A stretch of 49,405 nucleotides of DNA from Candidatus Stahliibacteriota bacterium (lineage in GTDB: Bacteria > Hydrothermota > Tepidihabitantia > SM23-42). The stretch lies in contig JAUWGT010000001.1 of assembly GCA_030606265.1 (NCBI GenBank), positions 1-49,405 on the forward strand, written 5' to 3'. The notes below the pieces were generated by a model that was not told the DNA's origin, did not search any database, and was given only the letters and a program-made list of their open reading frames with translations. A program made the translations under genes and the position numbers. Of this stretch, positions 8,701 through 31,884 are shown piece after piece (positions within the stretch are counted from its first letter, which is position 1; each line of letters opens with the position of its first letter).

Positions 8701-10666
8701 TCTTATTTTGGGAAAGAAAGAGCATGCTGACAAAATGCTTCTTAAAGAACTTAATACGAAAGAAATAGATGCGATGGATATTCGTGTAAGGATTGAATTC
8801 TTTTTAAAGACATCGCAATTTCATTATGAAAATGGAAATTTCGAGAAATCCATAGATTACTCAAAAAGAGTAATTGGATTGACAAACTCCCTGAGTAGGG
8901 AATATGCTATGGCGAGTGCTTTTGTAAAAATAGACCAATTCAATCTCAAGAAAATAAAGAATCTTGATATAGAAAAACAAACAACAAGATTAAAACAAAT
9001 GGGCTGCATTTACGACTATGCTTATCTTAAGAAACTGGAGATTGAATCAAAAATCGCCAGAGGGTTAGCACCAAAACAAATAAAGGAAATCGCCCACGAG
9101 TTAAATAAGGTGCAAGAAATCTTCGCCTCGCTTGGTGCTAATCTGGAACTCAATCGGGTCAGAAAGATTCAGGAAAAACTCTTTCCAATTGTTATTAAGG
9201 ACTACTCCCGAAGAGTGATATCTACAGAATATCTCAAGACCTTTTCAGAACTCGCCGAACTTATCAGTACCAAACTTGGTGATAAAGATTTTATCCAGAA
9301 TACACTCGATTTGATAATTCAAGCGACCAATGCTGAACGCGGTGCACTTTTTATCAATACTTCTGATGATATGGAGTTTGTTGCGGGCCGGAATATCGAT
9401 CGCACCACGATCAAAGATGCTGGGGAATTATCGAAAACCGCGATCAAAAAGATGTCACAGAATAGAATTATCTTTACTGAAGACGCCATATCTGATCCAC
9501 AATTCAATATCAAGAAAAGCGTAATACTCAACCAGATTCGTTCTTTACTGTGCATCCCTTTATCTGTATCTAATAAGGTTATTGGAGCAATATACCTTGA
9601 CTCAAGGCTTTTCAGCGACATATTTGGTCCTCAGGACAAAGACTTCTTAATCACGATTGCCAAAATACTTGGTTCAGTAATTGAAAAATCCCTGGCATTC
9701 CGCGCCCTGACTGAAGAGAACATTCTATTAAAGACCAAGATGATCCAGGAAATCGGTGCAGGTTATATTATCGGCAAGTCCGATCCTATGAAAAAGGTCT
9801 ATGAACTGATCGAGAGTGTTAGCCAGACTAATTCGCCAGTAGTCATACTTGGCGAAACTGGTACAGGTAAAGGCATGCTTGCCCGTCTTATTCACTTGAA
9901 AAGTAAACGACAGAATAGAAGATTTCTTACGATAAATTGTGGAACAATCCCTGAAACTCTCTTAGAATCAGAGCTCTTTGGTCATAAAAAAGGTGCATTT
10001 ACCGGTGCGGTAAACGACAAAACAGGATTATTAGAAGAAGGTGAAGCTGGAACTGTCTTCTTAGATGAGATCACAAATACCAGTGTTTCATTCCAGGCAA
10101 AACTCCTTGAGGCGATAGAAGACAAGATAATCCGCCGGGTCGGCGAGACACAAACCCGAAAAATCAATGTCAGATTCTTCTTTGCTACAAATCGAGACCT
10201 GGAGATTGAGATAGAAGAAAATAGATTTAGAAAAGACCTATTTTATCGTATTAATGTATTCAGTATTGAGGTACCGCCTTTAAGAGAACGGATATGTGAT
10301 ATCCCGGAGTTAGCGCAATTCTTCATGGAAAAATATAGCAAAGAGATAAACAAACCCTTAAAGGGGTTTACATTGGATGCTATGCAGAGATTAAAGGTAT
10401 ATCTCTGGCCTGGCAATGTACGGGAGCTTCAGAATATTATAGAAAGAGCTGTTATCCTGGCAAAGGATCAGTTGATTACAGTTTACGATCTGGGTTTTGA
10501 AAAATTAAAAGGAGCTGAGATTATGTCTTTGAAAGACATTAGAAAAGAAGCAATAATCGAGGCATTGAACGCAACCGGCTGGAATATAAAAAAAACAGCA
10601 GAATTGCTGATGATCGGGAGGACGAGCATTTACAGATATATGGAGATGTATGATATCACAAAGTAG
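5750..10666 (+). CDS. multidomain regulator: Ser/Thr protein kinase, STAND/AAA_16 P-loop NTPase, TPR array, GAF, sigma-54 interaction AAA+ domain, Fis-type HTH
   Basis: 1638 aa.
- Kinase: K39 in VLKIARK, HSDLKPEH, DFG, APE (aa 11-250).
- P-loop GDTGTGKT (aa 289-296) with Walker B VIIVDDLD.
- Long TPR-like helical repeats (about aa 600-1000).
- GAF-like block (...ERGALFINTSDDMEFVAGRN...IGAIYLDSRL).
- bEBP core GETGTGKGMLARLIH, ESELFGH, and GAFTGA at nt 9992-10009.
- C-terminal HTH TAELLMIGRTSIYRYM. Confidence 0.9.
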   Translation: MLSKGKRIHKYRVVGKLGESNYATIYKVTSGTRKNLVLKIARKKTHEHNDLIEREYQILSQFKHPNIVPVYDYDVTDNGKAYFTLEYVSGKPINKCFNDFSDDFIGAVIQVINGLGAFHNREFIHSDLKPEHILYDQKEKKAVLIDFGFAQARLAQTDTKPQNIELAGTIDYMAPEVIKGIGIDQRSDIYSLGVIIYETLAGKKPKDPFVPIQQVPEEINNMLARLVSNEPIIRPTIPELYQILVKYLKSIKIEVPSYEVHLPNTGFVEMPEIIDELLTTAGKVIVINGDTGTGKTRLLQEIKSRYLSRDFSVLFHAAQGLTNFLESLEGFVSSKKIAFLNKEDLSADDQARKFQVFEELNDLLIAFAEQKKTVIIVDDLDCLSDYQLGLFRYIGYGIHGSSILIIGASKTDSRIKNLGFDIIKLKPFTLDQIQELLEKTFFKFEIERKSTVPKDRRFTKWLLKQSGGTPLFIVEILKNLHKNKVVYYKANKWLVQMDVLGKTKIPSRIEDLLEKQLKNLEKEELTILKILALAQYALEPGIISSVLKTKSEIAIERLKNLGLLKENIVNNRRVVFVANKIFVLIIARLIERSEEQRLCNTLIKVLETTPEHENYVSVLAELSDKVGHAEKAYKYSRKSADNAEKIYDYDSTVKYYEKMTEYVQLIHSVEYPRILIKIAKISQKTGDNKTALQYYNKVLKLGDKTLRSEIYSGLGRVYSGMGKHTKAIKNLRKAMNLMKEKETLDYIAAANRLVYSLLCSSNFKEAKSILDQSLVLSKRINNVEMMADTFYYKAVYEWFKGDFNKGIEKAKQYLEFAQKHKLLASYAYAANLLGSLYKQKNDLEQAQRYIGEAIDCFSEMKLINALSSALSHQALFQLEYGNLSMATKSFKDVLIQAQQIDNRTTQYVSLSNLGSISNDSGEFNKAIEFYEKSLKIEPDDELSRYELSMIYYRKGEIDKAKSQLEKLTMKTQYPLYYIGLALINLILGKKEHADKMLLKELNTKEIDAMDIRVRIEFFLKTSQFHYENGNFEKSIDYSKRVIGLTNSLSREYAMASAFVKIDQFNLKKIKNLDIEKQTTRLKQMGCIYDYAYLKKLEIESKIARGLAPKQIKEIAHELNKVQEIFASLGANLELNRVRKIQEKLFPIVIKDYSRRVISTEYLKTFSELAELISTKLGDKDFIQNTLDLIIQATNAERGALFINTSDDMEFVAGRNIDRTTIKDAGELSKTAIKKMSQNRIIFTEDAISDPQFNIKKSVILNQIRSLLCIPLSVSNKVIGAIYLDSRLFSDIFGPQDKDFLITIAKILGSVIEKSLAFRALTEENILLKTKMIQEIGAGYIIGKSDPMKKVYELIESVSQTNSPVVILGETGTGKGMLARLIHLKSKRQNRRFLTINCGTIPETLLESELFGHKKGAFTGAVNDKTGLLEEGEAGTVFLDEITNTSVSFQAKLLEAIEDKIIRRVGETQTRKINVRFFFATNRDLEIEIEENRFRKDLFYRINVFSIEVPPLRERICDIPELAQFFMEKYSKEINKPLKGFTLDAMQRLKVYLWPGNVRELQNIIERAVILAKDQLITVYDLGFEKLKGAEIMSLKDIRKEAIIEALNATGWNIKKTAELLMIGRTSIYRYMEMYDITK

Positions 10667-10690
10667 ACTTGCATAATAGCACACAGCAAC

Positions 10691-10707
10691 TGTGCCATTT
10701 TGACACA
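10691..10707. promoter_or_regulatory. candidate enhancer (UAS) palindrome 1
   Basis: TGTGCCA-TTT-TGACACA. Confidence 0.55.
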
Positions 10708-10761
10708 CAGTCCATAGAATAAGCACTTAATTTCCAAGGCTTTACAAACTCCTCGTTCATA

Positions 10762-10778
10762 TGTGTCATTTTGACACA
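10762..10778. promoter_or_regulatory. candidate enhancer (UAS) palindrome 2
   Basis: TGTGTCA-TTT-TGACACA, a perfect palindrome 71 bp from site 1. Confidence 0.6.
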
Positions 10779-10832
10779 TAGACAAATCTGTAAGTGCCTT
10801 ACAGATAAGCATTTCCCAATCGGGTTTAGAAG

Positions 10833-10849
10833 TGTATCATTTTGATACA
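10833..10849. promoter_or_regulatory. candidate enhancer (UAS) palindrome 3
   Basis: TGTATCA-TTT-TGATACA, 71 bp from site 2 and 80 bp upstream of the -24 element. Confidence 0.55.
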
Positions 10850-10912
10850 CTTTCAGGAATTCTTTTCACTCCAACCTACGCGAATTTCCTTAAATCACAA
10901 GATTTTTCTTTC

Positions 10913-10928
10913 TGGCATATATTTTGCT
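10913..10928 (+). promoter_or_regulatory. sigma-54 (-24/-12) promoter 1
   Basis: TGGCATatattTTGCT. GG and GC have the canonical spacing of TGGCAC-N5-TTGC. It sits 27 nt upstream of the ATG at 10955, which is preceded by AAAGGAGA. Confidence 0.75.
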
Positions 10929-10954
10929 TATAAATAAACTGAAAGGAGAATAAC

Positions 10955-11158
10955 ATGAAGAAATTTTTCGCCTATGTTGTAATAAGCTTGCTCTTTGTGA
11001 GCATGTTTGGAATCGCCATCCAGAGTGTCAGTAATAATATAAAAGACGATGCTCCAGTAATCAGCAGTGCCCTTGATTTTATTAGCCCGGCAGTCGCATA
11101 TGCTGATACCGATACGGTCTTTGTGCCTCGTCCTCCTCCACCGCCACCAATTGATTAG
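10955..11158 (+). CDS. small signal-peptide protein (67 aa) with a C-terminal polyproline tail
   Basis: Strong SD (aaaggaga). MKKFFAYVVISLLFVSMFGIAIQS leader, acidic middle, and C-terminus VPRPPPPPPID. First gene behind sigma-54 promoter 1. No recognisable family. Confidence 0.5.
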   Translation: MKKFFAYVVISLLFVSMFGIAIQSVSNNIKDDAPVISSALDFISPAVAYADTDTVFVPRPPPPPPID

Positions 11159-11173
11159 AACGGAGTATAAAAC

Positions 11174-11368
11174 ATGAAAATATTGCATCTCTATGAAATC
11201 AAAATGGTTGACGGCACCAGGTATCAGGGTGAGATTGCATGCCGGGATAATAAGATGGTCGTGCTCAAGCTAAAACATCATCCAGTTGAGCAGAAACTCC
11301 GTCTCTATTACAATGGAATACTCTCAATCCGAGAACTGGGTTGGCAAAGAGCCTATGCACTGAAATAG
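11174..11368 (+). CDS. small conserved hypothetical protein (64 aa), paralog 1; possible Sm-like beta-barrel fold
   Basis: GGAG 8 nt upstream. 36/64 residues are identical to the 11618-11812 product, with shared blocks DGTRYQGEIA, VVL, KLRLY and GILSIRELGW. Confidence 0.65.
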   Translation: MKILHLYEIKMVDGTRYQGEIACRDNKMVVLKLKHHPVEQKLRLYYNGILSIRELGWQRAYALK

Positions 11369-11418
11369 AACAACGATTACGTTGAATTAGTGCTGTTAAC
11401 CAGGAATTACTGGCTGAG

Positions 11419-11435
11419 TGTGCCAAAATGGTACA
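11419..11435. promoter_or_regulatory. candidate enhancer (UAS) palindrome 4
   Basis: TGTGCCA-AAA-TGGTACA. Confidence 0.5.
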
Positions 11436-11491
11436 CTCAGGATTACAGTAAACGTAGTATTTGCAGGCGTTTGCACAAAGCTGCCTGAAAG

Positions 11492-11508
11492 TGTGTCATT
11501 TTGACACA
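11492..11508. promoter_or_regulatory. candidate enhancer (UAS) palindrome 5
   Basis: TGTGTCA-TTT-TGACACA, a perfect palindrome 73 bp from site 4 and 80 bp upstream of the -24 element (same spacing as site 3 to promoter 1). Confidence 0.6.
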
Positions 11509-11571
11509 CTTTCAGACGCGACTTCCACTCCAGTGTACATGAATTACCCTAAATCACAAGACTTCTCATTC

Positions 11572-11587
11572 TGGCACAGATTTTGCT
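11572..11587 (+). promoter_or_regulatory. sigma-54 (-24/-12) promoter 2
   Basis: TGGCACagattTTGCT, an exact consensus core. The ATG at 11618 is preceded by AAAGGAG. Confidence 0.8.
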
Positions 11588-11617
11588 CATTAATATGCCA
11601 TATAAGAAAGGAGTAAT

Positions 11618-11812
11618 ATGAAACCTGCACAGACTTACGAAGTCAAAATGCTCGACGGCACGAGATATCAGGGCGAAATTGCCTACCAAGATGAGGAAGT
11701 AGTAGTACTCAACATGCTAAGTAATCCAACAAGTCATAAACTGCGTCTGTACAATCACGGTATTCTATCGATCCGCGAATTAGGCTGGAAAAAAGGCCAC
11801 TTATCAGATTGA
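11618..11812 (+). CDS. small conserved hypothetical protein (64 aa), paralog 2; possible Sm-like beta-barrel fold
   Basis: See 11174-11368. It sits directly behind sigma-54 promoter 2. Confidence 0.65.
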   Translation: MKPAQTYEVKMLDGTRYQGEIAYQDEEVVVLNMLSNPTSHKLRLYNHGILSIRELGWKKGHLSD

Positions 11813-11846
11813 TCATCTTGGTTCAGATCAGTTGGTCCTTTAAGCA

Positions 11847-13070
11847 TTGATCAACTTAACTGATCATCTTACAGATAAAAGCATGTACATATATCTAATG
11901 TCAATCACTGTAGTATTGTTAAGCGCAGCAGTAATATTCAAATTAGCATCAGATGCCCGGCAAAACAAGCAACAGCTGATTATCTTACATGATATGGACC
12001 GCTCCATACTCTCTGGACTGAGCCATAGGGGTGTCATGAATGCAGTCGTCGACAAACTTATGTCTTTGCTCAAAGTTGATGCTGCTGCAATTCTTACTAT
12101 GAACAAGTACTATGGTTTCAAAGAAATTTTTTCAAATAACCTCGGTAGTAATTTCAGAAAAAACATCAAGTTAGAGGACAACGGCTTCTTCACTTCGGTA
12201 ATCGCTAATAGAAAACCTCTGATAATCTCAAAGATATCTAAAGATGAAGATGAGGGGTTCATCGGAACGATTAGAAACGAAGGTTTCATGGCTTACATGA
12301 GCACACCGATTATAGCAAAAGGTGGCATACCAACCGGCGTTTTAATGCTCTACTCAAGAAAACCAAGGAATTACACGAAGCAAGAGTTGAATCTTATTGA
12401 AGCAATAAACAGTCGGATAGGTATGGTGCTTGATCGCGCCTGGCTTATTGAAAGAATACAGGAGATCAATTTTGAATCAGTGCGTGCGCTTGTCGGAGCA
12501 ATTGAACTAAGAGACCCGTATACCATAGGACATTCTATCCAGGTCGCAGATCTATCACTCCTCATTGGCCGTGAATTAGAGTTTTCTGAAAGGAATCTCA
12601 ATTTAATCGAATTCGCAGGATTGCTCCACGATATCGGTAAAATCGTCGTACCCGAGGCTATCCTGCAGAAGAATGGCAAGTTAACAAAGGAAGAATGGAA
12701 GATCATCAAAATGCACGCGATCCACAGTGCGAAGATAATCGAACCAGTAGCAAATCTAAAGACAGTGCGGACCTGGGTATTATACCACCATGAAAAATGG
12801 GATGGTTCAGGTTATCCAGAAGGCAGGAAAGCTGAACAAATCCCTTTGCAGTCCAGGATACTTGCGGTCTGCGATGCGTATTCAGCGATGACCGGTAATC
12901 GACCTTATCGTAATGCACTCAGTGAAGAAGAAGCCAGAGATGAAATAACCCGTGTTGCCGGAAAACAACTGGACCCAAACATCGTTGACATATTCTTGTC
13001 ACTCAGTACGACTGGTTCTAGAATAAAAAAGAATTCAAGGAGGGACAAAAAGATCGTAGATATAAACTAA
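11847..13070 (+). CDS. membrane-anchored GAF-domain HD-GYP phosphohydrolase (probable c-di-GMP phosphodiesterase)
   Basis: 407 aa from the track's TTG. The ATG at 11883 (MYIYLMSITVVLLSAAVIF, a TM helix) is an equally plausible start. Central GAF-like region, then HD-GYP motifs HSIQVA, LLHDIGK and HHEKWDGSGYPEG. It lies 35-70 nt after the preceding small gene with no intervening terminator. Confidence 0.85.
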   Translation: MINLTDHLTDKSMYIYLMSITVVLLSAAVIFKLASDARQNKQQLIILHDMDRSILSGLSHRGVMNAVVDKLMSLLKVDAAAILTMNKYYGFKEIFSNNLGSNFRKNIKLEDNGFFTSVIANRKPLIISKISKDEDEGFIGTIRNEGFMAYMSTPIIAKGGIPTGVLMLYSRKPRNYTKQELNLIEAINSRIGMVLDRAWLIERIQEINFESVRALVGAIELRDPYTIGHSIQVADLSLLIGRELEFSERNLNLIEFAGLLHDIGKIVVPEAILQKNGKLTKEEWKIIKMHAIHSAKIIEPVANLKTVRTWVLYHHEKWDGSGYPEGRKAEQIPLQSRILAVCDAYSAMTGNRPYRNALSEEEARDEITRVAGKQLDPNIVDIFLSLSTTGSRIKKNSRRDKKIVDIN

Positions 13071-13149: not shown

Positions 13150-16100
13150 TCACAATCTGGCTATTTTCTTGCCCCGAACCTTATCCAGATAGACCAGCAT
13201 TATTTCAATACATCTTCCCGGATAAATCTTTTCTATCCCCTTCTTGTAAATCCTCAGTTGTTGTTGGTGCTTAACCTCCTCCTCACCGGTTTTGTAGTCA
13301 ACTATAGTAATATGCCTGGCACCAACAATCAATCGGTCAATTTGACCTGACACATCTCTGTTTTTGTCTTCAAAATAAATGGGAACCTCGTTTTTACATA
13401 CCACATCACGCCCGTCTTTGAAAAACAGGGATCGCAAATCCGGATCAGTTAAAGTCTCCACCAATAACGGGGTAAGTCTCTTTTCGATGGATTGCGCATC
13501 GTCAGGTTGGCGTGCATACCTATCCTGGACACTACGCACGACGTTCGTAATCAATACCTGCAATTCGATATTGTCAAGCCATTCTATTTTACTGAGCGCC
13601 TGGTGTATCATCGAACCGAATTCCATACCTTGCCTTCGAGAAACACCGATTATCTCAAGCCCTCGTTCAGTCGGCGAATACAAGGAACGCTCTTCCTTGA
13701 TAAACGGACTTTCCCGTGTAATAGCGCCATACTTTTTGATTTTAGTCACCGCAGGTTTAATTTCTTTCTTCTCGCTTATCTCACCTCTTGAGTAAGTTGA
13801 AGCCCCGACTTTCTCAACGATCCTTTCGAACCAAAACCCCAACCCTCTTTTCCGGTGCTTAAACCCCAATACATGGATCCCGTTTCTTGCCCGCGTCAAA
13901 GCTACGTAAAGCAGATTCAGCTCATCCGTTTGTAAACGATCCTGTTCAGCATCTTTCAAACCTCGTAGATACTTACCATAATTCCGCCAGAATATCCTCT
14001 CAGGTTCAACACCGTTTGCTTTGTATGAAAACAGCAACTTCCTATCTTCATATGTCTTTACAGCCCAATTTGTCTCAGGTAATAGAATGACATCAAATTC
14101 TAACCCCTTGGCCTTATGGATCGTAAGGATCTGTACGCCCTGAGGATGTGCATCCTTCACCTGAATAGTCTTACCGATATCTCCAAGCCAATCAAGAAAA
14201 GAACTCAGGTGACCAAAATCCTCGGTCGTATATTCCAACGCAACATCCAAGAGGGTTGCCAGCGCGTACGTAACGTCTATTTCCAATTCTTCGTATATAC
14301 TATAAATCAATTCATAGGGGTTTGTATAATGCACTAATGCAAGTAACCTCTCCAGTTTCTTTACTGCCGGCCAACCCGGGTGGCTATTACGGAGCATAAG
14401 AAAAAACGTCTTCCCACGATGCATCAAACGCCGCAATACCTCCTCGTCCATAGCAAAAAATGGTGACAAGAGAGCATGGAACAAAGCAAAATCATTTTCC
14501 GGGTCATCAAGAAACTCAAGAAGCTTAACCATGGTCCGTACATCTGTATCGCTCATAATATCACATTTTGATCGGCTTACATGGGGTATGCCTGTCCGGG
14601 TAAGACCTTCGGCAAGAGCCACACCGAATTTATTGGTGCGTACAAGTACTGCAAGATTAGAGTATTCATAACCCGGATTATCATGAAGTTCCTTGATAAT
14701 CGAACATGTCCGTTCAATTATCTCTTGCCGTCCTTGTTCCATATCAGTGTATCCCCCGATTTCTTCAACCCTCACCCAGCCACCAGTATTTCCTGGTTCT
14801 ACCTTGTCTTCTTTATCAAGTACAAGGTTTACAAAATCGATAACCTCTGCCTTGCTGCGATGATTTGTTGTTAATTCCTCGCGTTTGATCCTGCCTGGGT
14901 ATTTATCGATCAATACGTCAAACAGTTCTGATGCGCCACCGCGCCACCGAAATATCGCTTGTTTTGGATCACCCACATAGAAAAGACTCTTTTCATCAGG
15001 ATCAAGTGATACGATCTCACTGATCAAGGGAACGATTATTTCGAGCTGGCGATAGCTCGTATCCTGGAATTCATCAATCATTAAATGGCTTATTTCTGCA
15101 CCGATCTTGAAGTATAGATACTCTATATCCGCACTGATTTCCAGAGCGCGCATAGTTAGAGATTCGATATCATCAAAACTAACCAAATTCCGCGTTCGCT
15201 TCTCCTCCTTGAATAAATTATGGATTTCCAGCAGGGGTTTCAAATAAATCACGATCTGCTGATCAGAAAGGGATCGCAAGTAATCATCCGTGCATGAAAA
15301 CAATGTATTCAATAGTTTATCGAGATCGCTTTTTTCCATCTCCAAATTATCAGCAAACTTCACAAAATAATTTTTCCCATCCAGGTCGCAACGCAAAATG
15401 GATTTTGTGTACTCAGACTTTTCCAATACTCCGAAATCCCTCGTCTCAAGATACTGATCAACCATCACACAGAGCCTAAGCAGGTCTTTATTCAAATGCG
15501 CACCATCCTTAGTAAACCCGGCATCCCCATGTTCACGGATGAACAAAGCAAGTTGTCTCAAAGAGCGGGCAAACTCGTTTCCTTTCACCGCGACCCTGGT
15601 CCTGATATCTTGCTCGCCTTTCATCAATTCACCGAGGAAATCCAGCCATGGAATTATGCTCCAGTAGATCGACTCTATACTTGCCTTCACTCTGGTCTCT
15701 TGCGCTTGAACAAAATCCTGTATTATCTTCAACCGCGCTTCACTATGACCACTCCCCTCAAAGAATTTGTCCAGAACTGATTCATAGATAACTAATTTAT
15801 AGGCATCGTCGATTATTCTGTAGCCGGGCAAAATACCGGCTGCAAATGGAATGCTCGAGAGGAAAGAAGCAAACAGACTGTGGAATGTGTAAATATTGAA
15901 TTCTGAAAGGTTATCGAGCAAATATCTTTTTTTGCATTTTGCTCGTTCTTTTACATTTGAGAAATGTTTGTTAAAGTACTCGATTATTTCCATTTTTGAT
16001 TTGTCATCTGAAGTTCCGTTAATAAGTAGCTCAAGGTACTCTAAAACTCGTGTTTTCATTTCAAATGCCGCTTCATTTGTGAAGGTGATGCCATATAAGG

Positions 16101-16218
16101 ATTTCAGCGGGTAATCTGCCTCGTGTAGAAAAAGATAGAGAAAACGCTTTGTCAAAGCGCGCGTCTTACCGGCTCCAGCCGACGACATCAAAGCAGTGTG
16201 TTCTATCTTCTCAGGCAC
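13150..16218 (-). CDS. addA: UvrD/Rep-family helicase with C-terminal RecB-type PD-(D/E)XK nuclease (AddA/RexA-like)
   Basis: 1022 aa. Walker A SAGAGKT, motif II MIDEFQDTS, and C-terminal nuclease motif GQIDRLIV...IVDYKTG. Confidence 0.85.
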   Translation of the reverse strand: MPEKIEHTALMSSAGAGKTRALTKRFLYLFLHEADYPLKSLYGITFTNEAAFEMKTRVLEYLELLINGTSDDKSKMEIIEYFNKHFSNVKERAKCKKRYLLDNLSEFNIYTFHSLFASFLSSIPFAAGILPGYRIIDDAYKLVIYESVLDKFFEGSGHSEARLKIIQDFVQAQETRVKASIESIYWSIIPWLDFLGELMKGEQDIRTRVAVKGNEFARSLRQLALFIREHGDAGFTKDGAHLNKDLLRLCVMVDQYLETRDFGVLEKSEYTKSILRCDLDGKNYFVKFADNLEMEKSDLDKLLNTLFSCTDDYLRSLSDQQIVIYLKPLLEIHNLFKEEKRTRNLVSFDDIESLTMRALEISADIEYLYFKIGAEISHLMIDEFQDTSYRQLEIIVPLISEIVSLDPDEKSLFYVGDPKQAIFRWRGGASELFDVLIDKYPGRIKREELTTNHRSKAEVIDFVNLVLDKEDKVEPGNTGGWVRVEEIGGYTDMEQGRQEIIERTCSIIKELHDNPGYEYSNLAVLVRTNKFGVALAEGLTRTGIPHVSRSKCDIMSDTDVRTMVKLLEFLDDPENDFALFHALLSPFFAMDEEVLRRLMHRGKTFFLMLRNSHPGWPAVKKLERLLALVHYTNPYELIYSIYEELEIDVTYALATLLDVALEYTTEDFGHLSSFLDWLGDIGKTIQVKDAHPQGVQILTIHKAKGLEFDVILLPETNWAVKTYEDRKLLFSYKANGVEPERIFWRNYGKYLRGLKDAEQDRLQTDELNLLYVALTRARNGIHVLGFKHRKRGLGFWFERIVEKVGASTYSRGEISEKKEIKPAVTKIKKYGAITRESPFIKEERSLYSPTERGLEIIGVSRRQGMEFGSMIHQALSKIEWLDNIELQVLITNVVRSVQDRYARQPDDAQSIEKRLTPLLVETLTDPDLRSLFFKDGRDVVCKNEVPIYFEDKNRDVSGQIDRLIVGARHITIVDYKTGEEEVKHQQQLRIYKKGIEKIYPGRCIEIMLVYLDKVRGKKIARL

Positions 16219-18973
16219 TCTTCACCCCGCAAAGGTGGGTAAAAACGCAGTGTGTGCATGACTTCTTCACAGGAGTCTGCTCAAATGCAACATCTGGTGA
16301 CAAAAGCTCCTCGATCGTCGGTCGCAATATCTTCGCCTTAAAATCTTCCAGGTATCTAACAACATCACCATGCTCTACGATTTCGGTGATTCTTACATCC
16401 CCCGATATTCCGTAATATGCCAGACCGCCAATCTTTGCAAAATCACCTTCAGCAAAAATCATACCATACAATGGCAACTGAAATTCAACGAAGTCATCGC
16501 CCAATTCGTATTTCTTCCTTAATGGTATAGTTGATTTATAATCAAGAACATAATGTCGGTTATCCCGAATTTCAATTCGGTCAGGATACCCATATAGCCT
16601 TACCTTAACATTGTTTATTTGCAGAAAACACTTTACCTGCTTCTCAATTTCACTGGTGACCACTCGGTATCCTGATTTCGACCTTTCGATTTCTTTCTTC
16701 AGGAATCTGTTCATTCGCTTCTTATATATTTCAAGATCCAAGAAGTTTATCATCTTTGGACGCATTGCCAATTCACCCGTCAACGCCTTGCTCAACCTTT
16801 GATGCAGTTTTGGCTGCATTACTGTTATGTCTTCTTCTACCAGACCACCCGGGACATCATATTTGTAAAAATCCCGGAGCGCAACGTGCATAATCCTCCC
16901 CCATTCCATAGCCCCAGCTTCCTCAACGATAGTGCCGGGTTCTTTTATGCCAAGCACGTACATCAAGTAAAAACGGTATGGACACTCCCGATAGTCTTTG
17001 AGGTTAGTCGGACTAAGCCCACGTGTTGCTAGTTTGGGGATGAGTATCTTAAAGAGATCGCTGCTTTTCTTTACTGAACGTCTTTGTGTACTACGTGTCG
17101 GGTTGCTCAACGCTACTGTAGCATCGCTAAGCACTGCTCCTTCATCAATCTGAAAATCGATAAAGCGCGAACGGATATCTCTTTTCTTCTCTTCAATATA
17201 TGTAATAAACACTTCTTTTTTGGCATTAAGCATCTCCGTGAAATAGTAGTGAAAGAGGCTTTCCCGTTCTTTATCATAAGGAAGACCAATCTCCTTACGT
17301 ACCTGCTGATTCACGAATAGATCTTTTTCACTCCGCCTGGGGAAAACCCCTTCGTTCATCGAAGGAATGATGATGCAGTCAAAATCCAGGTTCCTTGCTT
17401 CAAGCAAACCGATCACCTGAACACCTTTCATAGGGTCACCCCTGGTTCTAAACGACGCATCCTTTAGGACATCAAGAATAAACCGCAACATCTTGATGCC
17501 TGGCTCAATATAATCACCAGCGATACGTAATTTGGCCAAGTCATTTAAACTATCCGAGAAATCGATGATACCACGAGAAGCAGTCTTCATGAGTTCTTTG
17601 TTATAGAGAAGCACATCATTCAGCATCTTAAGTAAATCCAGAATATACTGATTTAGCGATGTCGTGCATTTTACTGTATCAAAACAGTTTTCCAATAACC
17701 CGGTAAGTTTTTCGATTGTACTACCTGGGTGATCTTTGACATTAAAATAATTCAAGCGGTTCTTGATCATTGTTTCCTGCAGTGTGTAGACTGAAGATCG
17801 CACTGCATTCTCCTCAATTACCGCGTTCTTGACTAATGGGTGTTTGATGAAAATAAAAAATTCCTTATAATGAAAACCGCTCTCAACAACATTCAATAAC
17901 TGCTCGAGAAAAGTATAGAGCGGTGATTGAGTCATCGACAACCCCGTCGATAAATTAAACTCAAGACCTGAGGACTTCATGATACTGATCATTGGGAACA
18001 CATTTCTTTCATCGGTCAGGATAACTGCGATACGGTGGGGTTCATAGCGACTCCGTATTTTGCGGAAAATTTCTTTTAGATGGAGCGTCTGTTGTGACAT
18101 AGATTCGGTCCGCGCAATATGGATTACTGGCGGCTCATATTTCTCATGACCTATGATCGTAATGTTATCGTACTTTTTTACACCAATCCTTTTCAACATC
18201 TTAACGTGTAAGTAAAAGGGGCTGGTCGGATCATTCGCTTGTATCAGACGTTTCGAGCTCGAATGGAGAATCAATTCGGCGTTCAGGTCCTGTAAAATCA
18301 TCTGGATCAATAAAGTTTCCAGATGTGTCGTCGCTACAAAACCGGCTATGAGAATATGTTTGAAAGGCTGTAGCAAATCGGGGGTGAACCGGCTGAGAAT
18401 AAGATTTGACTTATCAATATTGTCTTGATAACCCAAATTAACAAGACTTCTTCGGTATTCGTCAAAAATATTTCTTATTATCGTGAGTTCATGCTTGATA
18501 AACCTTTCAGGATAGTGCCCCATGCGCACAAGTTCAACCACCTGCTCGAGGCTTATACCTTCCCTTGATAATTCATCGTACAAATGAAGCAACCGTTTGC
18601 CGATCGCCACGAATTTCAAAAAAGGCAAATCGTGCCAATATTCAACCCTTAGTGATTCTACCACCTTTCTCAGAATAAAATTTCGTTCAACCCCATTGAG
18701 CATCAATCCTTTTTTACCCCCCAGGTCATCGTAGATTTTGTCAACCAGTTCTGCTATTGTTCTCATAGTTGGCGGCACCAACCCGGAGGCTTTTGAAACC
18801 TCAAGCAGGTTCCTCCGAAAATACAACTTGTTGCGCTGGGTTGGAAAGACAACTAGAATATTTGAAAAATTAGGGAAATCAGGATGAAATTGCTCGTAGA
18901 AGTATTGCGCCAGCACACGGAGAAATGGTTGTTCAATCGGGATGATCTTCACTTTACTATACAGGGAGGTCAT
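16211..18973 (-). CDS. addB: AddB/RexB-like helicase-nuclease subunit (degenerate helicase, PD-(D/E)XK nuclease with Fe-S cysteines)
   Basis: 920 aa with an 8-nt overlap with addA. No Walker A at the N-terminus. Nuclease motif PDRIEI...VLDYKS. Cysteine pattern C(PYRF)...C-x2-C-x5-C (CTHCVFTHLC) matches the AddB iron-sulfur staple. Confidence 0.8.
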   Translation of the reverse strand: MTSLYSKVKIIPIEQPFLRVLAQYFYEQFHPDFPNFSNILVVFPTQRNKLYFRRNLLEVSKASGLVPPTMRTIAELVDKIYDDLGGKKGLMLNGVERNFILRKVVESLRVEYWHDLPFLKFVAIGKRLLHLYDELSREGISLEQVVELVRMGHYPERFIKHELTIIRNIFDEYRRSLVNLGYQDNIDKSNLILSRFTPDLLQPFKHILIAGFVATTHLETLLIQMILQDLNAELILHSSSKRLIQANDPTSPFYLHVKMLKRIGVKKYDNITIIGHEKYEPPVIHIARTESMSQQTLHLKEIFRKIRSRYEPHRIAVILTDERNVFPMISIMKSSGLEFNLSTGLSMTQSPLYTFLEQLLNVVESGFHYKEFFIFIKHPLVKNAVIEENAVRSSVYTLQETMIKNRLNYFNVKDHPGSTIEKLTGLLENCFDTVKCTTSLNQYILDLLKMLNDVLLYNKELMKTASRGIIDFSDSLNDLAKLRIAGDYIEPGIKMLRFILDVLKDASFRTRGDPMKGVQVIGLLEARNLDFDCIIIPSMNEGVFPRRSEKDLFVNQQVRKEIGLPYDKERESLFHYYFTEMLNAKKEVFITYIEEKKRDIRSRFIDFQIDEGAVLSDATVALSNPTRSTQRRSVKKSSDLFKILIPKLATRGLSPTNLKDYRECPYRFYLMYVLGIKEPGTIVEEAGAMEWGRIMHVALRDFYKYDVPGGLVEEDITVMQPKLHQRLSKALTGELAMRPKMINFLDLEIYKKRMNRFLKKEIERSKSGYRVVTSEIEKQVKCFLQINNVKVRLYGYPDRIEIRDNRHYVLDYKSTIPLRKKYELGDDFVEFQLPLYGMIFAEGDFAKIGGLAYYGISGDVRITEIVEHGDVVRYLEDFKAKILRPTIEELLSPDVAFEQTPVKKSCTHCVFTHLCGVKSA

Positions 18974-19560: not shown

Positions 19561-19569
19561 TTGTTGATT

Positions 19570-20859
19570 ATGTTCTTTAACGAAATCACCTTAATCTTCG
19601 CATCTTCCGTTACACTCCTGACTATATGTCTTGCTTGTCTATATTTTAAGAACCGCGACAATGAAAACTTCCTTTATGCAGTCCTTTTCTTTGTATGCTG
19701 CTCCCTGGCGTTATACAGTGAATACCACATTGAACTGAACTCAGGACATGCTCAGGCGATCTTCTGGAGTAAAATAAGCTATATTGCCATCTTTGGCTTC
19801 ATTTACACGTTTCCCGCATTTACCGCGATCCTTACAGGAAAAGCTCTCCGTAAAAGAACCAAGAACCTTCTTGGAATCATCACACTTGTTTGCTTTGCGT
19901 TTATCGGTTTAACTGACCTTATCGCCTCAAATCAACCGGTTACATATCTAAATGTCTTGCAGGTAGAAATTGGAACCCTCTTTCCTCTATTCATAGCTCT
20001 ACTTCTGATAATAACTTGTGGTTATTATGTAAAAGCTGTGCTAATGAGAAAATCCCTACCTGAGCAATCAAGGCAGACTCCACTCATCATCGGTGTGGCT
20101 CTTGGATTCTTACTCTCATCTTTAGATGCCGCTGGAGTATTCATAGGCAGACCGCTTATCCCTGGATTTAGGAGTCCGTATATCTTAGGTCTTTACATTG
20201 TCGCAGTTTCCTTTGCCTGGGTATTTCTATCCCGATACTCCTGGGTATTTACCAGTTTGACGAAAACACGCCAAGAGGTTGAAAGGCTGACCGCCAAATC
20301 AACTCGCGACTTTGTGGAATTTGTGCAACTTATTGCTAAAACATTGGACGCTAAGGACCACTATACGGCTGGGCATTCTCTGCGCGTAATGGATTATGCA
20401 GTTAGAATCGCCAATACCTTAGATATCCCTGAGCACGAAATAGAACTGCTCAAGCAGGCTTGTTTACTCCATGATATCGGAAAGATGAGTATACCTGACG
20501 GCATATTGAACAAAAAGAAACCACTGAGCAAAAAAGAACGCGAGTACATCCTCAGTCACCCGGTAGTCGGCAAGAAGATATTAAGTACGGTCAGTGAATT
20601 CAAAGGAATACTTGACATCATTTATGCTCACCATGAAAGGGTCGATGGTAAGGGCTATCCAGATGGTCTGGTAAAAGATGGGATCCCCTTGTTAGCGAGG
20701 ATACTCGCCGTTGCTGACACATATGATGCAATGCGGTCAGAAAGACCGTATCGTAAGGCAAAAAATAAAGAATGCGCACTCGACGAATTAAATAAAATAA
20801 AGGGTTCTCAACTCGATGAAGAAATCGTCGATAAATTTATTGCATCTTTAGCACAATAA
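19570..20859 (+). CDS. polytopic-membrane HD-GYP domain protein (probable c-di-GMP phosphodiesterase with an integral-membrane sensor)
   Basis: About 7 predicted TM helices in the first 230 aa. HD-GYP motifs HSLRVM, LLHDIGK and HHERVDGKGYPDG. The track starts at TTG 19561; ATG 19570 is preferred from promoter geometry. Confidence 0.85.
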   Translation: MFFNEITLIFASSVTLLTICLACLYFKNRDNENFLYAVLFFVCCSLALYSEYHIELNSGHAQAIFWSKISYIAIFGFIYTFPAFTAILTGKALRKRTKNLLGIITLVCFAFIGLTDLIASNQPVTYLNVLQVEIGTLFPLFIALLLIITCGYYVKAVLMRKSLPEQSRQTPLIIGVALGFLLSSLDAAGVFIGRPLIPGFRSPYILGLYIVAVSFAWVFLSRYSWVFTSLTKTRQEVERLTAKSTRDFVEFVQLIAKTLDAKDHYTAGHSLRVMDYAVRIANTLDIPEHEIELLKQACLLHDIGKMSIPDGILNKKKPLSKKEREYILSHPVVGKKILSTVSEFKGILDIIYAHHERVDGKGYPDGLVKDGIPLLARILAVADTYDAMRSERPYRKAKNKECALDELNKIKGSQLDEEIVDKFIASLAQ

Positions 20860-26218: not shown

Positions 26219-29200
26219 TTACTTCAAGAATATCGTTTTCTTTACAATCGATTGTTCACCAGTATTTAGCCTGATAAAGTACACACCTTGAGGTAAATTT
26301 CTAGTATTGAAAGTCTTACCATAAGTACCAGCTTTTTGTGCAGAATTCGTCAATGCACTAACCAATCTACCGGTCACATCGAAAATTGATAGATTAATTA
26401 AAGCTTCTTTAGGTAAAGTATACTGAACAGTGAATTCTTTGTGAGCTGGATTCGGAAATACATTTAGCATGAGCTGTCCTGAACCAAACAATGCATTGTC
26501 AGCGCTCTGCGGTCCTCCACCACCTTTGCCTGATTCTTGTTCATATTCATAAATCACCAATGCCGCGCACACTGCATCATTACCGAAGATCTTTACATTA
26601 ATTGCAGTATCAGCGTACAAATTCTCCGGCAATAGCTGTTTGTAGACAATTAAACTCTCTGGTGGAAGAGTTATATTTCCAATCAGAATATTGTCAATTT
26701 TAACTGTAATCGGCAGATTACCATAACCTTCCTGATATGCATAGGCTGCCAAGGCATATTCTCTTTCTGGCTTCAACATCTCAAACTGGTATTCAAGATA
26801 TTCAGTATCATAATCTATCCTCTTGTAAAATTCAGTGCCGTACTGCACATAACCCTCACGATGTAGATTAAACGGTGAGGCTTCAATTTCTCCACCTTCA
26901 GCAATATAAAATGCAAGATCTTCATCAGGATTTGAACCACCAAAGGTATAATTTTCGAACATAACATCAAAGGGTGCATTGTCTTTTTCAGCCCAGGTGA
27001 AATATACTATAGTTCCAAGAACTGTTTGTTTATGAACTATATGGGGATAATTTGATTCATCATCTGGACTATTGCTAATATTAATTGGACCAACCCAGCC
27101 AGTTCCAGCATTATACCAGAAATAGATTTCACCTTTTCCATTCACATCTGCAAAACAACTCATTGCATTGCCACCAGTAAACACAGGATAGTCTAAACGA
27201 TAATCAGTTGAAAAACTCTCATAACGTGTCCAGTAATGTCTGCCATTTGTATAAACTGCATATTTACGGTAGATATCACCAAATCTCTCCCAGACCACGT
27301 AAACATTTGTACCAGCAACTTCAATAGAAGGATGATGAGAGTTATTAGTGGAAACAGTTTCTTCATCACCCCAGGTTCCTGACACTGTTCTTGAACGATA
27401 CCTTATTTTGTTGTTATCTTCCCATACTACATGAATTTCTGGATGGCTTCCACCAGGATTCATAAAACCAATACTCGGATTTATTCCTGAACCAAAATCA
27501 GGGTCAGTCGAAGGCGGATCTGGAATATAAAAGTCAAATTCAGTATAGTACACGTTATCATTTTCTGTATTTGCATAAACAACTCGACCTTTACTATCAG
27601 TACCAACCACGAATGATGGTGGACCAAAGTCATAATCTGTCGTCACAATTGGTGTTGGTAGAGTCCAATTGTAGTCTGATATATGTCTTGCAAAATAGAT
27701 TGTATCCCTCGTACCCTGTGCCCACCAGACAATACCTGGTATTGGTGTTTCTGCATTTGGATTTGAACTTATTGCTGGATTACACCCATAACCAATTTCC
27801 ATCTTGCGTGACCAGGTTGTACCTCCATTATCCGAGTGAACAGCATAGATAACTCCACCACTCTCATAAGTTATCCAATAATCATCTACACCACCTCTGA
27901 TCATTTTCTTTGCTGAATTCGTGCTCGTTGCCTTATTTGTACTGCTTGTCAGATGTTTGACTTTATATTGTGGGTAGAATACATATGTACCCTTTGGTGT
28001 TGCTGCATAGACTTTATCACTCTGCGAATTATCAATCGTCAGGTCATTTATATAGACTGGCGGATTCTGCCCCGGTTCCAGAGTGAATTGAAACCACTCC
28101 GCTGCACCATCAACTGAACAATATAGATAATTTTCATCACTGTTATAATCTTGTTGCATCAGTGCATAAAGAATTACAGGCTCTTCTGGATCAATTTCTA
28201 TATCTTTATTGTAGTAATGAAGTAATCCGGAATTTTTAAATACCCAATTATTAGCTGCATCGATAGTTTTGAAAAGACCATCCTCTCCACCACAATATAT
28301 GTTGACGTACTTAATTGGGTCAACACCAACTGCATTTAACGCACCAGATAAACCATTGTTCTTAAGCGACCATGATTGTCCACCATTGGTAGTCTTGTAT
28401 AGTTTAGGAAGATATGGACTATCAAACGTATACCCAGCCGTATAAACTATATTACTGTATTGAGGATCTGCTTCAATCGCATTTAAACGACCTTCAAATG
28501 TAAAAGGAAATTCGTAGCAACTTACCCAACCGTTATAAGTATAAAAAACAGAAGGTCCACCAACGCCAAATATTGAAGAGCTTGCATATGCTGAATCAGG
28601 GTTAGTGTATGAAAGAGTGATATCGGTGATTCCTTTTGCGAATGCATAGTTATCCCAATTCAAACCTCCGTTAACAGTTTTAACAATATGTCCAATATTT
28701 CCCCAGTATGAGGCGTATATGATATCTGTATTTTGACGGTGCAATTTCAACATCGGTAGGTTCAAAGTCATGATCAATGTAGACCCACTGCCAATTGTTA
28801 CCTGCATCATAACTTTTTATTATCCCGTCAATTTGATCAAATGGTGTATATGATGTCTCGAATATATTTGAATTTACCGCTGAGATATCATCGCTCTCGG
28901 CTAGCTTGTAGCCATTGCTCTTTTCTTGCCAAAGGTTACCATAATTAGCACTTTTGTAAAGGGCAGCATACGCACCAACAAATAGCCAGCCAGGTGTCTG
29001 TGGGTGTTGAATTAAGGAACGAAGATTCCTATCAACAATACCATTGTTACTTTCAAACCAACTGCCACTATTGCCGTAATTTGTGCTTTTATAAAATCCC
29101 CACGGCCAAAATGTTGTATACATAATTTGACCTGCAGTATTTTTCTCAATTTCTAAAGCAGTTGGTTCAGGAGTTGGTAGATAAGGACCTAGTCTAAAAA

Positions 29201-29978
29201 CTTCTTGCCATGTTGAACCATTGTTTTGTGTTCTATAAATCACTCCGCAATCGCCATCCCAATCTCTAACACCAACAAATAACGCATTGGGAAGTATGTC
29301 AGTATTTAGTGTTAAACAATAAATATCTGCTAATCCTGCGGGAGGATTCAATCGAATCCAATTATTTCCTCCATCTATGCTTTTCCATACTGAATTGTTA
29401 GTGGCAACATAAAGAATTTGAGGGCTGTTAGGGTTTACCCAGATATCTCTAACTGTATATGAATGGATTAAACTTGAACTTCCGCAAGGATTCCATTGTT
29501 CTCCACCGTTAATTGTTCTGAAGATTGTATAATCAACATCTGTATACCATTCAAAACCAGCATAGATGACATTTGGGTTATTTGGATCCATGGCAAAACA
29601 TAAGGGATTGGTATTGGTAATCCCATAACTCTTTGACTCCCAGGTCTGACCCCAATCAGTAGATTTCCAGACTGGAGTTGCATCATTCTTGCCGATGTAA
29701 ACAACTCGTGCATAATTTGGTTCAGTAATCACACAGGTAGGATTTGTGACTTCTGGGTGTGTATATATCGAATCCCAGTATTCCCCTTCGTTCACTGATT
29801 TATAGAGTTTATGGGTCCTATCCGCGGCATAGATGACCCAGGTAGAACCATCCTGTCCCATACTCATATCATCCGCCCTTCCTGCAGGCGGACCATTTAA
29901 TGACTGCCACTCTGCTGAGAATACCGTTAGTGGCAGACTTATGATTAATGCTATTACTTTCTTCATTTTACCCTCCAC
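26219..29978 (-). pseudogene. about 1250-aa secreted BNR/sortilin-type repeat protein with a T9SS C-terminal sorting domain, split into two ORFs by a 1-nt frameshift at a T4/A4 run (28731-28734)
   Basis: ORF 28680-29978 has a signal peptide (MKKVIALIISLPLTVFSA) and six S/T-x-D/N-x-G-x-x-W repeats. ORF 26219-28810 continues the same repeats (KTVNGGLNW, KTTNGGQSW...) and ends in a T9SS tail (...FPNPAHKEFTVQY...GVYFIRL...K). Removing one base from the run fuses ...DVEIAPS to NTDIIYASYWGN... Confidence 0.7.
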
Positions 29979-30127
29979 AAATTTTCCCCAAATCTTTTAT
30001 TTGACCAGAAAATTTAGTGTCCCGAGCTTGTCGAGGAACTTCATTCTTGCTTTGTCTGTGCAAAACATAGATGCACACAGATATTTGTCTCCAATTCTCC
30101 GTGTCTCCATTTCTCCCCTTCTCAGGT

Positions 30128-31591: not shown

Positions 31592-31608
31592 TGTTACCCA
31601 ACCCGGTA

Positions 31609-31636
31609 ATTATACTGTTGATAGCAGAGAAGTCAA
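31609..31636 (-). promoter_or_regulatory. sigma-70 promoter of the 30128-31591 gene (short leader)
   Basis: Minus strand: TTGACT (31636-31631), 16 nt, TATAAT (31614-31609), then 17 nt to the ATG at 31591. Confidence 0.5.
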
Positions 31637-31884
31637 GACCTTAATTTTTGTTGCTTTCATTGTATTTCCTTACTGTCATGTTTAAGAATATTGTAATGAT
31701 TGGCTATATTCGATAAAGCAATTCTTGGGTATGGGTAAATTGTAATTGTCAGATCATAAGCACCAAAGTATTGAAAATAAAGGAATAAATTAGCAGGGCA
31801 GTGATTGATCTAAAATAACTTTTAACCTTTCATTTGAGCTTTGGCTTTATTAAGAATTTGCCACGAATCCCTAACGATCTCTAT

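Follow-up and report, generated by a model that had tools for sequence, protein, structure and literature searches.

The 49,405-bp stretch of DNA analysed here (contig JAUWGT010000001.1, positions 1 to 49,405, from a Candidatus Stahliibacteriota bacterium; hereafter the window) carries a gene for a 1,638-amino-acid (aa) activator of the bacterial enhancer-binding protein (bEBP) type, followed on the same strand by genes for a 67-aa protein with a signal-peptide-like N-terminus, two putative Sm/Hfq-like paralogues of 64 aa (A and B) and a GAF-HD-GYP protein (Table 1). Two regulatory cassettes, one in front of the 67-aa gene and one in front of paralogue B, each combine an array of palindromes with a sequence resembling a sigma-54 promoter. 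The comparative evidence makes it highly probable that these are two sigma-54 promoters (P1 and P2) with arrays of upstream activating sequences (UAS, three at P1 and two at P2), and that the UAS are the operators of the adjacent activator.

The palindromes were sought over the whole window with the pattern TGTRYCA-N3-TGRYACA, using dinucleotide-preserving shuffles as control. Five exact 17-bp matches were found where the shuffles predict none, and the remainder of the window contains no further copy. The start-to-start steps are 71 and 71 bp in cassette 1 and 73 bp in cassette 2. An initial annotation of this region had reported these coordinates and this phasing, and every position was recovered both by reading the region and by the pattern scan; its observation that the proximal palindrome begins exactly 80 bp 5' of TGGCA holds in both cassettes. 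The sites lie in multiple copies within the range of about 80–250 bp 5' of a sigma-54 promoter (centres at -98, -169 and -240 for P1, and at -98 and -171 for P2). Inverted repeats of the form TGT-N10-12-ACA constitute the UAS class of NifA, FhlA and 15 clostridial enhancer-binding protein groups, the clostridial motifs resembling those of FhlA and NifA, and such sites commonly occur in multiple copies, most of them 100–250 bp 5' of the promoter (PMC6615313). Because all five window sites are TGT-N11-ACA, they belong to this class.

The promoter pattern TGGCAY-N5-TTGCW matches exactly twice in the window (0.15 expected), and a second, looser scan, which required GG and GC and allowed up to two mismatches, added no convincing sigma-54 promoter to these two. 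Both matches fit TGGCAC-N5-TTGC, as annotated before, with the -24/-12 spacing intact, and both point towards a gene and leave room for a plausible leader: the predicted leaders comprise 16 nt (P1) and 20 nt (P2) before the ATG and each holds a GGAG-type ribosome-binding site. The two cassettes align with 84% identity over 145 columns, beginning a few bases 5' of the proximal palindrome and ending shortly after the start codon, which bears out the earlier claim that they are alignable up to the start codon, whereas the 64-aa proteins of the two cassettes are merely 59% identical. Cassette 2 is an old tandem duplication of cassette 1 (promoter, UAS and Sm-like gene) and is common to all Stahlbacteria relatives examined.

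Table 1. Features of the activator locus and its two regulatory cassettes (TSS, transcription start site; centres are given relative to the predicted TSS)
Feature	Position	Strand	Remarks
Enhancer-binding protein gene, 1638 aa	5750..10666	+	Assigned by Pfam and translation
UAS 1a	10691..10707	none	TGTGCCATTTTGACACA; centre ~-240 from predicted TSS 1; 25 bp past the activator stop codon
UAS 1b	10762..10778	none	TGTGTCATTTTGACACA, perfect palindrome; centre ~-169
UAS 1c	10833..10849	none	TGTATCATTTTGATACA; arms extended AAGTGTATCA/TGATACACTT; centre ~-98; starts 80 bp 5' of TGGCA
Conserved block, cassette 1	10888..10905	+	ccttaaatcacaagattt
Sigma-54 promoter P1	10913..10928	+	TGGCATATATTTTGCT; -24 GG 10914-10915, -12 GC 10926-10927; predicted TSS near 10939; GGAG ribosome-binding site 10945-10948
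First target gene, 67-aa protein	10955..11158	+	N-terminal hydrophobic signal/anchor segment; C-terminal PRPPPPPPP tail
Putative Sm/Hfq-like paralogue A, 64 aa	11174..11368	+	Second gene of operon 1
UAS 2a	11419..11435	none	TGTGCCAAAATGGTACA; centre ~-171 from predicted TSS 2; 51 bp past the stop codon of paralogue A
UAS 2b	11492..11508	none	TGTGTCATTTTGACACA within a 31-bp perfect palindrome CTGAAAGTGTGTCATTTTGACACACTTTCAG; centre ~-98; starts 80 bp 5' of TGGCA
Conserved block, cassette 2	11547..11564	+	ccctaaatcacaagactt
Sigma-54 promoter P2	11572..11587	+	TGGCACAGATTTTGCT; predicted TSS near 11598; ribosome-binding site aaggag immediately 5' of the ATG
Putative Sm/Hfq-like paralogue B, 64 aa	11618..11812	+	Target of cassette 2; 59% identical to A
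GAF-HD-GYP (HD_5) gene	11847..13070	+	Assigned by Pfam

The activator combines, in this order, a Ser/Thr-kinase-like domain, an AAA_16/STAND NTPase, a TPR array, a GAF domain, a sigma-54 AAA+ domain, AAA_lid_14 and a helix-turn-helix of the Fis type (HTH_8, residues 1594-1632, with the recognition helix IGRTSIYRYMEMY). Its Sigma54_activat domain (PF00158) is matched over the full length at 1e-65, and the translation contains the Walker A (GETGTGKG), Walker B (VFLDEI) and GAFTGA motifs that mark a bEBP. The best NCBIfam match of the C-terminal GAF-AAA+ part is NifA-like and falls below the cutoff. In the kinase-like domain, the catalytic loop reads HSDLKPEH (residues ~125-135) instead of the usual HRDLKPEN, with Asn replaced by His and with DFG and APE retained; the domain is possibly a pseudokinase or a kinase of atypical kind. 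Full-length homologues form more than 100 clusters, mostly from WOR-3, and in the literature we found nothing specific on TGT-N11-ACA in a bEBP context or on kinase-TPR-GAF bEBP fusions; one eLife article makes no more than a passing mention of NtrC-like ATPases.

The closest genome records are metagenome-assembled genomes (MAGs) of Candidatus Stahlbacteria (L083 and L104), and the layout of UAS and promoter is present at every orthologous Stahlbacteria/WOR-3/TA06 locus examined, with two to three palindromes at steps of 70–73 bp and 62–64 (or 51–52) bp between the last of them and TGGCAC. While the gene order activator, 67-aa gene, Sm-like, Sm-like, HD-GYP is retained in L001-L012, contigs with the same small proteins or relatives of them, about 20 WOR-3/Stahlbacteria/TA06 loci share the module in shuffled order, with the activator, the HD-GYP gene, one to three Sm-like genes and often a small signal-peptide gene (in L013 and L085, N-terminal stretches of the activator are masked with N). 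Close relatives (L007, L104, L045, L083 and L108) have two to three sites per cassette, 71–73 bp apart and exactly 80 bp from TGGCA, L007 and L104 having three sites in each cassette, and UAS 1a is retained in L001-L009, L045, L083 and L104. Cassette 2 has two UAS in the window lineage and three in L007, L104 and L108, and the corresponding intergenic region of the window (11369-11617; compare 7678-8000 in L007) is ~74 bp shorter, which suggests that one 73-bp UAS unit was lost in the window lineage or gained in the others. In diverged WOR-3/TA06 loci the spacers cannot be aligned with those of the window, and the sites are 70–72 bp apart with a gap of 62–64 bp to TGGCAC, except for L117, in which the gap is 52 bp, one helical turn less. 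Together with the bEBP motifs of the activator, this cross-locus comparison lends strong support to the UAS and -24/-12 architecture, present twice, that had been proposed for the region.

Conservation also bears on the possibility that the small genes are transcribed mainly from sigma-70-type promoters and that the TGGCA-N6-TTGC matches are non-functional or minor. The region is AT-rich and contains weak sigma-70-like matches (9/12, for example at 10894-10923), but their number does not exceed that in shuffled sequence (8 against 6.4 +/- 2.3). Moreover, in a comparison of 15 diverged loci conservation is highest in the columns of the -24/-12 elements and absent at the putative -10/-35 positions, and the sigma-54 motif occurs at these two places alone in 49 kb. 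We therefore regard transcription mainly from sigma-70-type promoters as very unlikely. Since sigma-70-like promoters are no more frequent than in shuffles and the plus strand of the region lacks a terminator-like site, neither feature was retained as a candidate.

To obtain an unbiased test of the link between palindromes and activator, four activator orthologues with 41–54% identity were chosen by protein identity alone, ignoring DNA motifs. A sigma-54 promoter lies just 3' of the activator gene in all four, in some with one mismatch, and is followed by a gene for a small protein or an HD-domain protein. The recognition helices of these orthologues read RRTIQRY (L124 and L127), RRTIERY (L126) and RKNIYDC (L125), and in three of the four (L124, L126 and L127) the palindrome shifts along with the helix to TGCGACA-N3-TGTCGCA. 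Relative to TGGCA, the palindromes are located at -139 and -68 in L126 and at -150 and -80 in L124, whereas in L127 the distal site at -153 is degenerate (TGCGACA-TTT-TGTCCAT) and the one at -80 a hybrid (TGTGCCA-TTT-TGTCGCA), and L125 retains, at -79, a TGT...ACA palindrome in degenerate form (TGTATAA-AAA-TGATACA). The distant orthologues thus retain the 7-N3-7 format, the phasing of 70–73 bp and a promoter offset of 79–80 (or 68) bp. Within the TGTRYCA group, the helix GIGRRSLHRYI is accompanied by TGTGCCA only, and IGRTSIYRYM mostly by TGTGTCA and TGTATCA, so that half-site and helix pair as TGTGCCA with LHRY, TGTRTCA with IYRY and TGCGACA with IQRY or IERY. Because the half-site co-varies with the recognition helix, the adjacent activator very probably reads the palindromes; this co-variation, found in independently chosen orthologues, is the strongest available evidence for that assignment and supports the initial proposal of an operator for the neighbouring activator.

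The same co-variation, together with the fixed promoter distance, argues against the palindromes being hairpins that terminate or stabilise upstream transcripts, or dispersed repeats similar to repetitive extragenic palindromes. Some arms do reach 10–14 bp (for example 11485-11515), and UAS 1a and 2a follow closely behind stop codons. However, no site is followed by a run of T, the scan found no terminator on the plus strand, and neither the rest of the window nor the flanks of related loci hold extra copies, which also rules against the dispersed repeat that the initial annotation had named as a possible refutation. The A·C mismatches fall on either strand depending on the site, so that no single transcribed strand would keep the pairing, and RNA covariation was rejected on this ground. 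A known RNA family at the locus was likewise rejected, since scanning 10000-12500 against Rfam (E<=1) produced a single chance snoRNA match; no palindrome matches an Rfam family. A role as hairpin or dispersed repeat thus appears extremely unlikely.

A scan of 185,579 genomes, one per species, for the palindrome 48–78 bp 5' of TGGCAY-N5-TTGC returned 111 stretches, against ~4 by chance as estimated from the number of specified bases. Many of these adjoin bEBP genes whose recognition helices are alike, following the pattern GI(S/G)R(S/R)T(L/I)(Y/H)R(K/Y). After removal of the WOR-3 clade, the gaps between palindrome end and TGGCA in the 93 non-redundant matches peak at 49–53, 62–65 and 72–76 bp, corresponding to a periodicity of 11–12 bp (Rayleigh p ~1e-9, the 93 matches not all being phylogenetically independent). 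The periodic gaps imply that dependence on the helical face at short enhancer distance is general for this operator class, and suggest a face-of-helix rule for TGTRYCA-N3-TGRYACA operators across phyla. As a separate observation, the palindrome class and a sigma-54 promoter were found directly 5' of dnaK in Victivallales and a rumen MAG (L014, L087 and L114) and in Opitutales (L039 and L118); the former three also contain several extra TGGCACA/TGTGCCA half-sites between these elements. The arrangement hints that in these PVC-group genomes the chaperone is controlled by sigma-54 and a bEBP.

The cross-phylum association of palindrome and bEBP gene is relevant to a further alternative, in which the palindromes are operators of another factor, of the CRP/FNR type or another dimeric regulator, through which that factor modulates the promoters, and the adjacent bEBP binds elsewhere or nowhere. 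The CRP site, TGTGA-N6-TCACA, is one base shorter than the window palindrome, and TGTG...CACA does resemble the CRP core; in addition, the conserved block near -45 described below is evidence of at least one more element. However, CRP has a core spacing of N8 and the palindromes one of N9, and TGT-N10-12-ACA is already established as a motif class of enhancer-binding proteins. Among orthologues, the half-site and the adjacent bEBP's recognition helix change together, and in other phyla the same palindrome class lies beside bEBP genes with similar helices, helically phased to sigma-54 promoters. Binding by another factor is therefore quite unlikely in our estimate, and the three alternatives taken together retain a small share of the probability.

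Between UAS and promoter, the initial annotation had pointed to a conserved block midway in the spacer, where an IHF-like bending site would be expected. The block itself, cct(t)aaatcacaaga(t/c)tt, stands, being conserved across the phylum and present in both cassettes, but it is not midway: its core lies 10–22 bp 5' of TGGCA, about -47 to -35 from the predicted start, and adjoins the -24 element. When 15 diverged WOR-3 promoters are aligned on TGGCA, the block is moderately conserved, with the consensus gA.ATt.C..ga and a mean information of 0.73 bits against 0.40 in the remaining spacer, and the four distant orthologues carry it too (GAAATTTCAATAC in L126 and GATATTTCGATG in L125, for instance). 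Nor does it follow the IHF consensus. The best matches to WATCAANNNNTTR in the UAS-promoter spacers have one to three mismatches, and in 16 of 17 spacers shuffled sequence matches as well; the IHF label was dropped and the block retained as a conserved element. AA/TT steps occupy conserved positions in the 62-bp spacer, with the Fourier amplitude maximal at 10.5–11 bp (a shuffle control that leaves shared ancestry in), and such phased A/T tracts suggest intrinsic curvature of the spacer DNA. For the block, a role as bend or as the site of an architectural protein is plausible. IHF-assisted sigma-54 promoters such as Pu and nifH likewise have a conserved element between enhancer and promoter and a short loop that needs a sharp bend, but the window spacers lack an above-chance WATCAANNNNTTR, the block adjoins -24 and phased A/T tracts are present instead. 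Intrinsic curvature can reportedly replace IHF, according to Carmona, Claverie-Martin and Magasanik in 1997. In several loci, another conserved block (GCAAAYGCARTAT-like) is visible by eye between the UAS; it is weak in the anchored alignment and is not claimed. Separately, an inverted repeat with 9-bp arms (ATCTGTAAG-tgc-CTTACAGAT) lies at 10786-10806 between UAS 1b and UAS 1c, and its palindromy is just partly retained in L007 and L104.

The first target gene encodes the 67-aa protein, for which Pfam and NCBIfam gave no family assignment; small homologues lie directly 3' of the promoter in the distant loci L124, L125 and L127. The 64-aa proteins are Sm/Hfq-like in predicted fold only. The confident AlphaFold model of paralogue B (predicted local distance difference test score 82) has five strands arranged as a bent sheet, as in Hfq and bacterial Sm-like proteins, and in a Foldseek search of the PDB bacterial Hfq dominate the top matches, with template-modelling (TM) scores of 0.62–0.69, root-mean-square deviations of 1.4–3.2 Å over ~53 residues, a probability of 1.00 and E ~2e-3, while the three best-TM matches (0.73) correspond to a domain of the Kuenenia cytochrome Kustd1711. 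The model thus places the proteins in the Sm fold, whereas at the sequence level they fall short of Hfq/Sm families (PF21979, 18 bits against a cutoff of 27; NF047718, 17.7 against 52). These sub-threshold matches, to Hfq_1 and Hfq_rel_Cyano, come from paralogue B alone, and a PDB sequence search with the Sm-like family profile returned nothing significant. Unlike Hfq, the 64-aa proteins lack the N-terminal helix, and any RNA binding or ring formation is putative. The family is tiny and restricted to the WOR-3 group, with 25 clusters at 90% identity and 28 representatives at E<=1e-3 among 1.8 billion proteins.

The HD-GYP product is a probable c-di-GMP phosphodiesterase. A UAS/sigma-54 cassette stands directly 5' of the HD-GYP gene in L026, L060, L093, L085 and L126, and because of this arrangement in L026, L060 and L093 the gene belongs in the regulon. 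No terminator was found on the plus strand between 11812 and the HD-GYP gene of the window, and the gene is probably co-transcribed from P2. The gap between paralogue B and the HD-GYP gene (11810-11897) contains a direct repeat (TGATCATCTT x2) and several short GATC-centred palindromes. In more distant WOR-3 genomes (L031 and L040, isolate Kmv43; L076 and L086), further layouts of a UAS pair with a sigma-54 promoter precede other genes, which encode secreted proteins of 419–485 aa and a repeat protein of 107 aa rich in Trp, Arg and Glu. The regulon, or a set of paralogous regulons, may thus be larger than the genes of the window.

Taken as sigma-54 promoters under the adjacent activator, the two cassettes could work as follows. 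Activator dimers would bind the palindromes through the C-terminal Fis-type helix-turn-helix, and since the sites are 71–73 bp apart and the proximal centre is ~73.5 bp from the -24 GG, sites and promoter would lie on roughly the same helical face at intervals of about seven turns. The kinase/STAND/TPR/GAF part would sense a signal, upon which the AAA+ domains would assemble as a ring. Bending of the short spacer DNA, aided by the phased A/T tracts and/or a protein at the -45 block, would then allow the GAFTGA loops to touch sigma-54, and ATP hydrolysis would open the promoter. The predicted output of P1 is the 67-aa signal-peptide protein and Sm-like A, that of P2 Sm-like B and probably the HD-GYP phosphodiesterase.

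Several points weigh against this reading. At 10.5 bp per turn 71 bp amount to 6.8 turns, so that placement on the same face is approximate. In the metagenomic locus L012 (544-640) the promoter of cassette 2 reads TAGCCC-N5-TTGCA, in which the invariant -24 GG is broken while the palindromes and the 80-bp offset are intact; the cause is promoter decay or else an error in sequencing or assembly. Pfam scans of the open reading frames of the window found no rpoN, and the GAFTGA-bearing activator gives indirect support for sigma-54 in this organism. In the kinase-like domain of the presumed sensor part, His replaces the catalytic-loop Asn, and the missing terminator is the sole ground for read-through from P2 into the HD-GYP gene.

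A bolder version of the activator model would see in the lattice of 70–73 bp, with ~73.5 bp to the -24 GG, a distinct enhancer geometry of giant STAND-kinase bEBPs, in which three spaced dimers wrap ~220 bp as one particle. Three dimers of 185-kDa subunits would supply one AAA+ hexamer, possibly through STAND/TPR co-assembly and unlike the side-by-side dimers of NtrC, and the promoter would occupy the next position of the lattice. We consider such a particle speculative and rather unlikely. If it were real, a new Hfq-like RNA-binding pair and a c-di-GMP phosphodiesterase would link a STAND sensor to post-transcriptional and second-messenger control.

In relation to known systems, the architecture itself is textbook, extending known concepts and overturning none. 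The window sites share with the UAS of NifA and FhlA the inverted TGT...ACA repeat, the location of several sites 5' of TGGCAC-N5-TTGC and the activator gene beside its targets, and the presumed binder is likewise a GAF-AAA+-Fis-HTH activator whose best, sub-cutoff NCBIfam match is NifA. They differ in having a spacer of N11 rather than N10 as in NifA, in being 70–73 bp apart rather than adjacent or ~3 turns apart, and in a proximal centre at -98, the close end of the usual range; moreover, the activator has an extra kinase-STAND-TPR N-terminal part of 1150 aa, and the targets are unrelated to nitrogen fixation. The NtrC site, TGCACCA-N3-TGGTGCA, is also a 17-bp 7-N3-7 palindrome. The NtrC (NR-I) enhancer at glnAp2 resembles the cassettes in this format, in supplying several dimer sites per AAA+ ring, in looping and in its helical-face dependence at short range, whereas the half-site differs, NtrC sites 1 and 2 are ~32 bp apart instead of 71–73 bp, and a phosphorylated response regulator, NtrC, takes the place of the STAND/kinase fusion.

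What is new is a ~72-bp lattice maintained throughout a phylum-level family of giant STAND-kinase bEBPs, a regulon of Hfq-like, HD-GYP and small secreted proteins, and, as read from the sequences, a natural specificity series of helix and half-site (TGTGCCA, TGTRTCA, TGCGACA), which is useful for decoding and engineering recognition by Fis-type helix-turn-helix domains. WOR-3/Stahlbacteria are almost wholly uncultivated, and to our knowledge nothing is known of gene regulation in the group. The locus constitutes a complete testable module of operator, two promoters, cognate activator and small regulon that could be transferred to a sigma-54 host. The geometry of about seven turns, which varies by ±1 bp or by one full helical turn, is relevant to the assembly of very large bEBPs on DNA, and the module provides a first functional clue to both the lineage-restricted Hfq-like-fold family and the family of ~1600-aa kinase-STAND-TPR-GAF-bEBP fusions.

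The neighbouring genes of the window at 13150-18973 (minus strand), 19561-20859 (plus strand) and 26219-33153 (minus strand) include an AddAB-type helicase-nuclease pair and a second HD-GYP protein, which has a seven-transmembrane (7TM) sensor domain. Several proteins among these neighbours carry type IX secretion sorting domains (Por_Secre_tail and CHU_C), consistent with an FCB-group-like secretion system in the lineage.

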